64,000 nt of DNA from a virus (Duplodnaviria; Caudoviricetes), in the IMG/VR virus record IMGVR_UViG_2724679223_000002, positions 1 through 64,000 of that record. The stretch is one strand, 5' to 3'. Below are positions 6,822-64,000 of this stretch, one piece after another. The translations under genes and the position numbers were made by a program. The notes under the pieces were generated by a model that ran no database searches, was not told the DNA's origin, and worked only from the letters and a program-made list of their open reading frames with translations. Numbering within the stretch: position 1 is the first letter of the stretch; each line of letters begins with the position of its first letter.

Positions 6822-7141
6822 TACTCCTCCTCTCCAATCAAGAAAAACTTATAGTCTTGATTCAGGTTGCTTGGAGTAATCAAATCCTTTTCTTCCGCAT
6901 AATCATTGATTTTTATGCAACGAAGCTGGTAAGGAAGAGTATTCCAAGCTAAACTTAAGAAATCAACGTCAGGAACCAATCGGAAAAATCCTGTGATTCG
7001 ATTTTCGGCTCCGTCTAATACAGAAACATACATATGATGATCTATATTGCTATAAATCATATCTAGCTTCAGATTATTGCCGATGTCGGCAATAATCCCA
7101 TGCTCTTCAATTCCCGTCACATCAATTTCCAAAGCTTTCAT
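6821..7141 (-). CDS. Baseplate accessory protein
   Basis: Size and synteny only. Confidence 0.45.
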   Translation of the reverse strand: MKALEIDVTGIEEHGIIADIGNNLKLDMIYSNIDHHMYVSVLDGAENRITGFFRLVPDVDFLSLAWNTLPYQLRCIKINDYAEEKDLITPSNLNQDYKFFLIGEEE

Positions 7142-58449: not shown

Positions 58450-58884
58450 TTAATCTCTTATCCCAAGCTCTTTCTTTAAAGCCTTTTGTAGAACTTGGGA
58501 AAAGTTTATATTTTTATTTTGTGCAAGAATATTTAAATGGTTTGGAATAGTTAACGTTTTTTTGACATATGATACCCTAATCAAAGATTTTTCGTATTCA
58601 TAATTCATTGTCAAATAAACTACTTCCTGATTATTTTTTATATTCTTTTTTATTTCTTCAATAGAGCTAGGTTTTGGAAACTCTTTTTTCTCCTCCTCGT
58701 ATTCCTCAAGAGCTAGAGTTAGCCATTCTTTCCCCATTTCTATTGCATGCTCTAAACTTTCTCCATATGTTGAATATAAAATATATTCCTGTCCTTTGTC
58801 ATCCTCATTTAAAACAACATCAGGAAAACATATGTAAAAAAGTCCCTCCTCTTTTGTTATAATCGCTGGGTAAGTTACGTCCAT
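58450..58884 (-). CDS. hicB: HicB antitoxin
   Basis: YPAI...FPD...TYGESLEHA; KKTLTIP...NINFSQVLQKAL. Confidence 0.9.
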   Translation of the reverse strand: MDVTYPAIITKEEGLFYICFPDVVLNEDDKGQEYILYSTYGESLEHAIEMGKEWLTLALEEYEEEKKEFPKPSSIEEIKKNIKNNQEVVYLTMNYEYEKSLIRVSYVKKTLTIPNHLNILAQNKNINFSQVLQKALKKELGIRD

Positions 58885-58923
58885 AAAATCCCTCCTTTTT
58901 TATTTTTTGAGGTACAAGCAAGG

Positions 58924-59106
58924 CTATAGTAGCCCTGCTTGTCTTAAAGCACTCTCAACGGTCTTTTGAGGTAAATCTTTTCTAGGATGTGGAACAGTTA
59001 CCAATCCTTTCTTGCTAGGGTGCTTGAAATGATGATGACTGCCTTTAATCCTGTCAAGATACCAACCGTCTTGCTTGAGTAGCTTTATGAGGTCTTTTGA
59101 GCTCAT
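58924..59106 (-). CDS. hicA: HicA toxin
   Basis: DGW..RIKGSHHHFKHP.K.G.VTVPHPRKDL. Confidence 0.95.
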   Translation of the reverse strand: MSSKDLIKLLKQDGWYLDRIKGSHHHFKHPSKKGLVTVPHPRKDLPQKTVESALRQAGLL

Positions 59107-61347: not shown

Positions 61348-62808
61348 TTAAATATTTAAAATTAACTCTTCTTCTTTTCTTTCTTTTTCTTGCTCTTCTT
61401 CCTGTATTTCTGATTTCGTTTTTTGATTTTGTTCCATTGCCAATGTTTCTCTATATTGCTCTGCTTTTGCTATCTTAGTGAATTCGATTTCTGCATTATA
61501 CTCTTTAACAACTTTCTCCACTTCATCTAAGTTCACTCGGAAAAATTCTCTTCTGTCGTTTATTTTATTTACTCTATTATCATAAAATTTCTTATGTAAA
61601 GCATTTTCTAATTCTGGTGCATTTTTAGAATAAATCATAGCATGTACATCAAAATTAAATGGAACAGAGGCATCTCCCAATTCCCGAACCCTATCCATTG
61701 GATCCAATCTTCTTGTCATTCCTATCTTATAAACATTCTCTCCAAAAGAACCTATGTTAGAAATAACATAAACATGTCCAGACTTTGTTTGTTGTGCCAT
61801 AGACATTGCTCTTTCTTTGTTGTGGCTTGCTTCTTCTAACTGTGCTTTTAATAATTCTATTTTAGCATTTAACTTATCTAAAGCTGCTCCATGAGCTTCT
61901 TGTAACTTTTGTTGTGCTTGTTCTAATGCTTTTTGAGCTCTCTCTTCTTCTTTTTGAGCCTCTACCTGTGCTTTTTCAAATTCTCTTTGTGCTCTTTCTT
62001 CCTCTTTTATTTGTTCACGAATAGCTCGTTGCTCTTCTTTTTCTTCTTGTTCTTTTTGTGCCATTTCATAATTCATATATAATTCTTGTAGTTTTAATCT
62101 TAAATAATCTCCTGAAATAATACACATATTTGTTTCGTTTAATTTATTGATTGTTTCATAAGCTTTATTGATTCTTTTTTCCATTACATGAACATTATTA
62201 AATTTTACTTTTGCTATTGCTGCATCCGCTTCTCCATTAAAAGCTCGCAACATCAATTTCAAATTATCATCAATCATTTTTTGACCTTTCTTTTTATCTC
62301 CGCCAACTTCCCAGCTAACAGAACAAGTTGCAGCTTTTTTGTCTTTAATCATCCATTTCATCTCATTGTTTACTCTTTCAATCATAGCTTTATAATGAGC
62401 GGAACTTTCATAATAATATTTTGGTTCATAAAAACTAAATTCTTGTAAATCTTGTTTTTCCTCTAGTATTTCAATTTCTTTCTCTAGTTCTCTTTTTTTA
62501 TCTAAAATCTTTAATGCACGTTCTTTTTCTGTTTCGTTTTCAGATTTTAATTTTAAAATTTCTTTTTCTATTTCGTTTTTTTTATTTTCTTTTTCTTGTA
62601 CTGCCTGATCCATATCCATAATTTGTTTATATTCTTTTTCTACCTTAGAATAAAAATCATTGTATTTATTTTTTAAATTCTGATTCTCTTTTTCTAAAAT
62701 ATCTTTTTCTTGTTTTAAAATCAAGTTTTCTCTTTGAAAACCACTTCCAGATGTCCAACCGACAACAGCTATAACTAACAATATAACAATTACAATATAA
62801 AATACCAT
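61348..62808 (-). CDS. DUF4041 / T5orf172 (GIY-YIG-like) protein with N-terminal TM
   Basis: LRAFNGE.D; GHVYVISNIGSFGENVYKIGMTRR...RREFF. Confidence 0.9.
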   Translation of the reverse strand: MVFYIVIVILLVIAVVGWTSGSGFQRENLILKQEKDILEKENQNLKNKYNDFYSKVEKEYKQIMDMDQAVQEKENKKNEIEKEILKLKSENETEKERALKILDKKRELEKEIEILEEKQDLQEFSFYEPKYYYESSAHYKAMIERVNNEMKWMIKDKKAATCSVSWEVGGDKKKGQKMIDDNLKLMLRAFNGEADAAIAKVKFNNVHVMEKRINKAYETINKLNETNMCIISGDYLRLKLQELYMNYEMAQKEQEEKEEQRAIREQIKEEERAQREFEKAQVEAQKEEERAQKALEQAQQKLQEAHGAALDKLNAKIELLKAQLEEASHNKERAMSMAQQTKSGHVYVISNIGSFGENVYKIGMTRRLDPMDRVRELGDASVPFNFDVHAMIYSKNAPELENALHKKFYDNRVNKINDRREFFRVNLDEVEKVVKEYNAEIEFTKIAKAEQYRETLAMEQNQKTKSEIQEEEQEKERKEEELILNI

Positions 62809-62922
62809 TTATAAGCCTCCAATAATTTTGATTACAATCTATTTGTACTATATTTTTCTTTATTTGTCAAACTTTCGACAGTTTTATATAAAATATAATA
62901 AAAAAAAACAGAGATGAATTTT

Positions 62923-63501
62923 CTATCTCTGTTGCATTTGTATATTTATTATTTCTAATTTGTCTTGTTTTTCTTTTTGATATTTATCTACTCTATCTAC
63001 AATAAAGCTTACTCCAACACAACGTATTGTTCCACTATTTTCATCAATATTCTTAATAGCAACATATACAGTTACAGCTATATCTCCAGCAATTAGAAGA
63101 AAAGACGCTTTTAATTTAGTAGGCATACATTTTTTAGAATCAAATATTAAAATTTCGGCAGAATTAAGCAATATGTGGTACAAACAAGGAAAATACATAA
63201 AACGATCTTTTAATTCAGGTTTTATTTCTCCATAAATTTTTTTAACGTTTCCTATTGTAATTTTTTTATTTAGTATTTCATTTATGATCTCTAATGGTTT
63301 TTTCGCTTTATAAAGTTTATGAACCCCTATTAGATGAGAAAAATTACTTTCCTCAAATTCTAAGTCAATAATACTTCCATTTGATAAAAAATATGTAAAT
63401 TTATATGGAATTATCTCTTTTTTATAAAATTGAAAAATATCATAGAAGTTCACTTGACTAATAGAGACTTTTTTATTCCTAGTTTTATAATCAATTGTCA
63501 T
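62923..63501 (-). CDS. PBECR4-family RNase-like protein
   Basis: L.F.ESNFSHLIGVHKL...DR motif. Confidence 0.7.
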   Translation of the reverse strand: MTIDYKTRNKKVSISQVNFYDIFQFYKKEIIPYKFTYFLSNGSIIDLEFEESNFSHLIGVHKLYKAKKPLEIINEILNKKITIGNVKKIYGEIKPELKDRFMYFPCLYHILLNSAEILIFDSKKCMPTKLKASFLLIAGDIAVTVYVAIKNIDENSGTIRCVGVSFIVDRVDKYQKEKQDKLEIINIQMQQR

Positions 63502-63515
63502 ATTTTCTCCTCTAA

Positions 63516-63692
63516 GAAAAAAGCCTGTTAAATATCATAACAGGCTAATTTTTATTTTTGAAGACTGAAAGATTTTTTAGCTGTTCTTCATCAGCGAGAA
63601 TATGGTATTATTCCTGCCCCCATATGGGTCCCTACTGTCTTCCTAGTAAGTCCTATCCCCAACCTCGATAGTCAAGGGAAGAATTTCTTCTT
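63516..63692 (-). ncRNA. Structured leader ncRNA with terminator upstream of the PBECR4 gene
   Basis: TTGATT-17-TATACT (63727-63699); GC-enriched stems; AGCCTGTTA/TAACAGGCT plus T tract before the RBS. Confidence 0.6.
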
Positions 63693-63736
63693 ACTTGAAG
63701 TATACATTTTTTCTTACAAAAAATCAACTTATTTTT

Positions 63737-64000
63737 TTACTTTTTCCAAGCTTTTCTATAAAATTCTTCTGCAATTCGTCTGTACCTTTCTTGCATTGCG
63801 GTATTGATACCTAAGAAAGGTCTGGCTTTAATCTTTGCAGATTGTTTTAATACATATAGAAATTCTAGTTGTCTCTTTTTTCCTCTTCCTACCTCTCTTG
63901 CTATAAAAGTTGCTCCGGGTGTTCTTACTAAAAAAGCACTTCTAAATCTTCTAGCACTTTTTCCATATGACTTAGGACTAATGGGAATTGTCAATGCTCC
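63737..64000 (-). CDS. Virion morphogenesis protein (Mu gpG-like), 5' part outside window
   Basis: C-terminal IKARPFLGI motif. Confidence 0.7.
   Translation of the reverse strand, partial: GALTIPISPKSYGKSARRFRSAFLVRTPGATFIAREVGRGKKRQLEFLYVLKQSAKIKARPFLGINTAMQERYRRIAEEFYRKAWKK

Follow-up and report, generated by a model that had tools for sequence, protein, structure and literature searches.

Organization of the PBECR4 cassette

The stretch of DNA analyzed here (the window) comprises 64,000 nucleotides (nt), bases 1-64000 of the 84,759-base provirus record IMGVR_UViG_2724679223_000002, and carries on its minus strand a cassette in which a gene for a PBECR4-family nuclease is preceded by a structured non-coding RNA, hereafter R1. 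An original prediction, made from the sequence alone, had claimed for this locus a promoter, a GC-enriched non-coding RNA, an intrinsic terminator, a ribosome-binding site and the nuclease gene, and all of these were found in place on the minus strand:

63699..63727, minus strand, promoter-like site TTGATT-17-TATACT (9 of 12 consensus matches, alone no better than chance)
63555..63681, minus strand, R1 structured RNA, 127 nt (R1 covariance model 118.5 bits, E about 1e-22)
63517..63546, minus strand, intrinsic terminator between R1 and the ribosome-binding site, a 9-bp hairpin (63546-63522) followed by a T run
63507..63513, minus strand, ribosome-binding site AGAGGAG, read from the sequence
62923..63501, minus strand, PBECR4 gene, 192 amino acids (aa), ATG at 63501 (Pfam PF18813, E 3.6e-14)
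62898..62933, minus strand, cassette-ending terminator, a hairpin (62907-62933) over the stop codon followed by a nine-T run

The number of promoter-like sites is about that expected by chance (7 vs. 6.7), and support for the promoter comes not from match quality but from relatives, in which a -35/-10-like pair occupies the equivalent position ahead of R1. Terminator-like sites number 3, vs. 0.3 expected, and the terminator stem is predicted to form with a pairing probability of 0.89 within the window's full leader. The leader folds better than its shuffled versions (z -3.3; 1 of 200 shuffles equals it) and, in agreement with the claim that its RNA is non-repeat, no tandem repeat was found in it. 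A search of the leader for a tRNA or tmRNA whose remnant might account for the GC-rich stretch returned no such gene.

R1 is a conserved, pseudoknotted RNA family

R1 is a real structured RNA family, present at 44 places, of which 19 lie in genomes or phages and 25 on metagenome contigs, the latter obtained from a pattern scan that returned 46 stretches. Our covariance model, built from 9 sequences with 130 positions and 22 nested pairs and with both pseudoknots left out, finds R1 in 11 of 151 Fusobacteriota genomes, at 16 places in all, and recovers every seed-homologue locus together with a second copy in one of them (L009). In viral contigs an exact 20-mer of R1 had no match, and a degenerate R1 pattern returned 2 stretches, neither of which was confirmed by the model.

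Covariation was assessed on 37 pooled R1 matches, 33 of them distinct. In this alignment, which is fitted to the nested helices, 89.8% of the cells in the counted helices pair across the 33 distinct sequences; sliding the partners lowers this to 30-44%. Of 25 pairs, 17 show changes in both partners, and the covariation score of 0.451, compared with 0.182 in shuffles, is reached by none of 500 shuffles. The helices, with their positions in the window, are as follows:

63663..63677, minus strand, pseudoknot PK1, interleaved with P1: CCTT (63677-63674) with GAGG (63666-63663); 93.9% of cells pair, two-sided changes in 3 of 3 pairs
63653..63671, minus strand, P1: CTATC (63671-63667) with GATAG (63657-63653); at least 5 of 6 pairs kept in 33 of 33 sequences, in several sequence types
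63631..63650, minus strand, P2: CTTACT (63650-63645) with AGTAGG (63636-63631), the loop holding the 5' strand of P3; present in part of the family, by eye, uncounted
63560..63642, minus strand, long-range helix P3: GAAGAC (63642-63637) with GTCTTC (63565-63560); 98.4% of cells pair, two-sided changes in 5 of 6 pairs
63600..63625, minus strand, P4: ATATGG (63625-63620) with CCATAT (63605-63600), between invariant ACCC and GGGG; 90.9% of cells pair, two-sided changes in 4 of 6 pairs
63580..63595, minus strand, P5: GCTG (63595-63592) with CAGC (63583-63580), followed by a conserved A-rich strand; 100% of cells pair, covariation in 1 of 4 pairs
63568..63589, minus strand, pseudoknot PK2: P5 loop GAAGA (63589-63585) with TCTTT (63572-63568); 71.4% of cells pair, two-sided changes in 4 of 6 pairs

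P1 is misaligned in the pooled alignment and was counted separately in the 33 distinct sequences, and the one covarying pair of P5 is U-A in 21 sequences and C-G in 11. Both PK1 and PK2 covary although they are absent from the search model. Among the stems listed in the original prediction, P1, P3, P4 and P5 are supported by covariation, as is part of a CCTTGA/TCGAGG stem in the form of PK1, whereas P2 recurs only in part of the family; PK2 is an addition to that list. The conservation check that had been proposed for the leader gave a positive outcome, R1 being found with compensatory changes upstream of PBECR4 homologues of 37-45% identity.

An Rfam scan of 62500-64000 returned no family at threshold, the best match (21.1 bits) being terminator-driven. 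At E<=10 R1 itself gives only terminator-driven matches, and the R1 loci of relatives are likewise without a family. The candidates that R1 is FuFi-1 or drum were rejected, as neither gave an Rfam match.

Linkage of R1 and PBECR4

A PBECR4 gene or its remnant lies downstream of R1 at 37 of the 44 places. Among the 19 in genomes and phages, an intact PBECR4 gene stands directly behind the terminator at 11 and a broken one at 4 (81 aa; 46+50 aa; 76+128 aa; a 54-aa remnant), while ToxI-like repeats and ToxN follow at 2, nothing at 1 (L041) and the contig end at 1. At the 25 metagenome places the gene is full-length in 12, interrupted by the end of the contig in 1 and broken or truncated in 9, while 2 places have nothing behind the RNA (L100, L119), 1 has too short a stretch of downstream DNA and none has ToxN; some of these places probably repeat lineages of the genome set, and assembly errors may swell the broken class. 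Altogether 13 broken PBECR4 genes sit behind an intact R1, and broken genes beside an intact RNA are the decay pattern of a toxin and its antidote.

The association also holds when approached from the protein. Seven Fusobacterium and Cetobacterium loci encode the 37-45% identical homologues, and all seven have R1 upstream, between promoter and terminator; in the 151 genomes searched with PF18813, each of the 9 full-length members of the R1 clade has R1 upstream. The R1-linked proteins form one clade (support 100/98), and a scan of 15 more distant PBECR4 loci with the R1 model found no R1.

Tandem duplicates of the R1-PBECR4 unit were observed at L009 1004-1352, a place that is also L031 616-751, and at L116 1143-2126. 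The second copy in L009 keeps the RNA and terminator and only the last 54 codons of the gene, and L116 has two R1-PBECR4 units in succession.

PBECR4 is a predicted BECR-fold RNase

The assignment of the nuclease to PBECR4 is confirmed by Pfam, in which PF18813 scores 54 bits against a curated cut-off of 27, aligns residues 21-185 with model positions 4-167 of 188, and is the only family retrieved at E<=1. His56 is invariant in 17 aligned sequences, and the column of S165, in the C-terminal strand, is mostly Ser or Thr; a His together with a Ser/Thr is the combination that Iyer et al. (PMC5512222) name for PBECR domains.

The AlphaFold2 model of the protein (with a pLDDT confidence score of 95.1) had no match at E<=0.001 in a Foldseek search of the PDB. 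Structural alignment yielded 48 rows at Z>=2, all of them weak (below Z 5) and nearly all BECR-fold RNase toxins, with colicin D as the best (Z 3.6, root-mean-square deviation 2.9 over 76 residues) and BrnT, RelE, RegB, HigB and CdiA-CT among the others. No ToxN-like chain is found among these 48 weak rows. We regard the PBECR4 of the window as a predicted BECR-fold RNase.

Relatives of the protein are few: homology searches at E<=0.001 gave 63 cluster representatives, of which the best after the query itself has 41% identity. By sequence, solved chains returned no match at E<=1 except chance antibody hits, and a word-indexed homologue search with PBECR4 retrieved only the query. Scans of viral contigs with the protein or its alignment found no match, nor did tblastn against 50,697 phage records, and tblastn against plasmids found 2 distant PBECR4 genes. 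PADLOC contains no PBECR4 model; NCBIfam gave no family for any PBECR4, which is uninformative since it gave none for ToxN either.

Other PBECR4 clades are preceded by other RNAs

PF18813 is present in 32 of the 151 Fusobacteriota genomes. Of 20 PBECR4 loci without R1, 14 have a terminator just before the start codon (called with a strict rule of this analysis), a non-coding stretch and a promoter-like site, and 2 have coding sequence upstream instead. Tandem repeats precede the gene at several of these loci (58 nt x 2.0, 54 x 2.3, 54 x 2.1, 54 x 4.3 and 53 x 1.9), and two further diverged two-unit arrays were recognized by eye. These repeats fall within or just above the ranges that Blower et al. 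(PMC3401426) report for type III antitoxins, namely 31-62 nt in toxIN and 39-57 nt in tenpIN, at 1.9-5.6 copies.

In Firmicutes the RNA upstream of PBECR4 is drum (RF02958), which scores 51.4 bits at L016 (threshold 43) and falls below threshold at L014, L017 (36.2) and L018 (31.2); the motif was also seen by eye at L020, L021, L023, L025 and L026. An independent search for drum returned 6 RNAs in 5 of 151 Clostridia genomes, 3 of which are followed by a terminator and PBECR4. Pfam confirms the protein at two of these (L074, 123.8 bits; L078, 91.2 bits), and the third (L079) rests on a hidden Markov model built in this analysis. Weinberg et al. (PMC5737381) describe drum as strongly associated with a nearby protein, named in their supplement. 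Mapped on the protein tree, RNA class changes 10 times, vs. 29.6 in shuffles, a result that kinship alone would also give.

At least 5 further, mutually dissimilar GC-enriched non-coding stretches run from a promoter-like site to a terminator ahead of PBECR4 (L044/L045/L069; L065/L068; L055/L062; L019/L022; L015/L027). They had no Rfam match at E<=0.1, and we regard them as candidate new RNA families.

A short hairpin with an A-rich single strand of the GAAAAA type behind it recurs in R1 (63580-63595 with 63573-63579), in the repeat units of L047-L059 and in drum. This arrangement may be a common site of recognition or cutting by PBECR4, or it may be a mere effect of A/T-rich genomes.

Two further observations concern the drum loci. 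In Turicibacter (L016), the drum-PBECR4 unit is preceded, at a distance of a few hundred bases, by two matches to the Rfam 6A RNA (RF02925) at 2202-2251 and 2379-2429, which score 34.7 and 40.9 bits (threshold 41.2). An orphan drum at L082, about 1620-1700, adjoins the 3' end of an apparent tRNA gene on the opposite strand.

The PBECR4 cassette is allelic to ToxIN in a sister phage

The nearest named relative of the prophage is Fusobacterium phage phiFN37. Between the end of the tail-completion gene and the end of R1 it shares 99.5% identity with the window, and the two part at window base 63555, where the R1 match ends. Beyond R1, phiFN37 carries a 39-nt x 1.9 repeat, amounting to 76 nt of repeats between R1 and the terminator, then that terminator and a ToxN gene (Pfam E 5.2e-38), with no PBECR4. 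Identity with the window returns in an 85-nt promoter-bearing linker behind the cassette (L004 about 6850-6960). The genes on either side of this linker differ between the two phages, being PBECR4 and PD-Lambda-1 in the window vs. ToxN and a KAP-family NTPase in phiFN37. In the window the corresponding features are:

62809..62897, minus strand, conserved linker with promoter-like TTGACA-17-TACAAT, ahead of the next accessory gene (from the alignment with phiFN37)
61348..62808, minus strand, PD-Lambda-1 defense gene, a neighbor outside the module (PADLOC PDLC03976, E 7e-173; Pfam DUF4041 and T5orf172)

The terminator between R1 and the ribosome-binding site belongs to the swapped cassette and not to the flank shared with phiFN37, such that the terminator-RBS-PBECR4-terminator piece (RBS, ribosome-binding site) is allelic to the ToxI-terminator-ToxN piece. 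The allelic relation supports functional equivalence of the two, both being defense or addiction cassettes. More generally, the sequence comparison suggests that accessory genes of the phiFN37 group are exchanged as pieces lying between conserved linkers that bear promoters. In a second viral contig (L005) the R1-ToxIN order is the same, and the few differences in R1 fall in loops and junctions. Metatranscriptome contigs from three runs in two studies span R1 joined to the ToxI repeat, attesting presence in RNA libraries and not transcription, ends, levels or function.

A proposed type III-like model for R1-PBECR4

We hold with moderate confidence that R1-PBECR4 is a type III-like module of toxin and RNA antitoxin, or of abortive infection, with a BECR-fold toxin. 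We favor this model because of the layout of the locus, the clade-specific linkage of RNA and protein, the repeats of sister clades, the 13 broken genes, the defense setting, the allelic ToxIN, the combination of a stable terminator with a variable spacer, and the precedents for non-repeat antitoxins. The terminator stem is predicted to be stable in all 12 leaders compared (P 0.78-0.98), and the A/T-rich spacer between R1 and terminator ranges from 0 to 21 nt across them, with no clear antiterminator. The original prediction had proposed an RNA-inhibited or RNA-partnered RNase acting in abortive infection. An RNA-partnered RNase with type III-like layout is supported by the conserved R1, the recurrence of the layout in other clades and the tandem repeats in some of them; RNA-protein binding, inhibition, toxicity, an RNase target and phage defense are inferred.

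In such a module a constitutive promoter would drive R1, and a leaky intrinsic terminator would stop most transcripts, so that R1 would be made in excess. R1 would bind the PBECR4 RNase and hold it inactive. Were the supply or stability of R1 to fall, through loss of the element or through an infecting phage shutting off host transcription, the longer-lived RNase would be released and would cut cellular or phage RNA.

Several observations weigh against this model. R1 occurs without PBECR4 at five places (with ToxIN at two; alone at L041, L100 and L119), and in phiFN37 (99.5%) and L005 (about 96% identity) it is kept directly before the ToxI repeats, which places R1 in the conserved flank of the slot and implies that it is not strictly tied to PBECR4. 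In these two phages R1 is not needed as an antidote and could act as a general leader of the slot; it may be a relic or have a role of its own, such as supplying the promoter or protecting against the PBECR4 of other elements. RNA-library contigs covering the R1-PBECR4 form were sought and none was found. Three of the 6 independently found drum RNAs stand alone, without PBECR4, and the support for the BECR fold is weak, as seen in the best Z score. Since R1 is non-repeat, the processing and assembly logic of ToxIN is not simply transferable to it. Finally, in 7 of 12 leaders the most favorable duplex of the terminator's 5' arm is with the invariant GGGG region of R1, 1-4 kcal/mol better than in shuffles, and this weak complementarity keeps a cis-acting switch alive as a rival.

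According to this rival, R1 would be a cis leader, a riboswitch or attenuator responding to a protein or ligand, that sets read-through into PBECR4 rather than neutralizing the protein. Textbook riboswitches have this layout, an aptamer-like pseudoknotted RNA whose terminator closely precedes the ribosome-binding site. The pairing of terminator arm and GGGG also speaks for it, and the RNA RCd22 of the AbiF toxin likewise lowers transcription of its gene (10.1101/2025.04.15.648962). The gain from the alternative pairing is nevertheless small, the spacer is variable, and the terminator stem is stable throughout; moreover, the RNAs of the PBECR4 clades are unrelated and include tandem repeats, unlike a single-ligand aptamer. 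R1 also outlives broken genes at 13 places and is parted from the terminator by the 76 nt of repeats in phiFN37, and Weinberg et al. judged the related class of motifs, marked by a 3' terminator, to be improbable riboswitches (PMC5737381). We consider this explanation unlikely.

Alternatively, R1 could be an independent gene for a small phage RNA, or could belong to the slot as a promoter-leader, in either case with a task of its own, PBECR4 being just its commonest neighbor. The homology boundary with phiFN37 lies exactly at the R1 3' end, so that R1 behaves as conserved flank, a second conserved promoter-bearing linker stands behind the cassette, and R1 is found before ToxIN or alone at the five places given above. 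Outside the phage lineage, however, R1 occurs in many unrelated settings and PBECR4 or its remnant adjoins it at 37 of 44 places, R1-PBECR4 units have been duplicated jointly (L009/L031, L116), and the R1-linked proteins form a single clade, which makes this explanation improbable. It is equally doubtful that R1 is a substrate, cofactor or guide of PBECR4 with the complex as the active agent, to which the same linkage and clade specificity, the hairpin and A-rich strand of each RNA class as a possible recognition or cutting site, and the RNA-binding roles proposed for some PBECR domains by Iyer et al. (PMC5512222) would apply, given that broken protein genes beside intact RNAs better fit an antidote, that a terminator cutting protein output relative to RNA follows antitoxin dosage logic, and that R1 gives no sign of a variable guide segment.

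Comparison with known systems

The type III operon order is found in the window and in its relatives. ToxIN (AbiQ), CptIN and TenpIN, which occur on mobile elements and phages and are frequent in Fusobacteria and Firmicutes, share with R1-PBECR4 a promoter, a pseudoknotted non-coding RNA, an intrinsic terminator and a small endoribonuclease gene (PMC3401426), and ToxIN occupies the very same slot in phiFN37. Unlike in these systems, the toxin is PBECR4 and not a member of the ToxN, CptN or TenpN family; hhalign of PBECR4 against the ToxN of phiFN37 gives a probability of 0.4%, and the conserved residues of TenpN and its ToxN-like fold, as reported, are unlike PBECR4 (PMC12283969, PMC13682666). 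The candidate that PBECR4 is a renamed CptN or TenpN was set aside on Pfam, on the hhalign comparison with ToxN, and on the TenpN residues and fold as described, there being no direct sequence comparison with CptN or TenpN. The RNA differs as well: in contrast to the tandem array of ToxIN, R1 is a single 127-nt unit with at least 5 helices and two pseudoknots.

Non-repeat RNA antitoxins do have precedents. AbiF-RCd22 of Clostridioides difficile, like R1-PBECR4, consists of a phage-borne toxin with a structured, non-repeat RNA upstream and a terminator, and RCd22 restrains its own AbiF (10.1101/2025.04.15.648962). AvcI, the partner of AvcD, is likewise described as a non-repeat RNA antitoxin of type III-like character. 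AbiF (Abi_2/HEPN-like), AvcD (a deoxycytidylate deaminase) and their RNAs are unrelated to PBECR4 and R1, and the functions reported for AbiF-RCd22 and AvcID were shown experimentally, whereas those of R1-PBECR4 are predicted. R1 also resembles the DUF3800-I, FuFi-1, skipping-rope and drum motifs, each an intricate orphan RNA with a terminator and one nearby protein family (PMC5737381); relative to drum, R1 has a different architecture and gives no drum match. Finally, the PBECR domains of Iyer et al. 2017, which occur in polyvalent proteins or MuF fusions, were read as injected offensive effectors, with no RNA partner described in the accessible text (PMC5512222). The PBECR4 of the window, unlike those, stands alone, with its own promoter, RNA and terminator, among defense genes.

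Broader implications

The usual account of type III systems so far has three related toxin families whose RNAs are repeats, and a few odd cases besides. What would be new here, as judged from the sequence, is a toxin of a new fold family and a new RNA without repeats, joined in a type III-like logic. Our literature search, with subscription journals and supplements outside its scope, found no paper linking PBECR4 to an RNA partner or giving drum a function. We propose tentatively, as a serious possibility at somewhat less than even chances, that stand-alone PBECR4 proteins with their varied upstream RNAs (R1, the 53-58-nt repeats, drum RF02958 and at least 4 further classes) constitute a large unrecognized type III toxin-antitoxin or abortive-infection family, with a BECR rather than a ToxN fold, across Fusobacteriota and Firmicutes and the phages of both. 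Drum RNA would then gain a function, as an antitoxin, and a single toxin family could be tamed in two ways, by arrays of repeats or by one elaborately pseudoknotted RNA. A BECR-fold family with several RNA classes would broaden the type III picture, would give a testable function to stand-alone PBECR4 proteins and to the drum motif of 2017, and would supply compact natural RNA-protein pairs for studying the co-evolution of RNA structure and RNase specificity. The alternation of PBECR4 in the window with ToxIN in phiFN37 at one locus also shows how prophages shuffle such modules.

Genomic setting of the cassette

The cassette stands at the head of an accessory island within the morphogenesis region of a Mu-like Fusobacterium prophage. 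Upstream lie genes for the small and large terminase, a portal-MuF fusion (two genes upstream of the PBECR4 gene) and a tail-completion/virion-morphogenesis protein, and a search of genome contigs with the tail-completion protein found no match. Downstream of PBECR4 follow the PD-Lambda-1 defense gene, a lipoprotein, small open reading frames (ORFs) and an anti-repressor, and structural genes start again beyond the island, as judged from the ORF list only.

A single 855-aa protein encoded at L002 1179-3746 (minus strand), record bases 64578-67145 and so just past the window, joins Portal_Mu to Phage_Mu_F. About 200 C-terminal residues of this fusion match no Pfam family. MuF proteins with a terminal PBECR domain have been described by Iyer et al. 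(PMC5512222), and by analogy the unmatched tail could be a second, virion-borne RNase of the same phage.

At window 58450-59106 (minus strand), two small neighboring ORFs encode 60 and 144 aa. The phiFN37 counterpart of the larger one is annotated as HicB-like, which would make them a second toxin-antitoxin pair on the same island.

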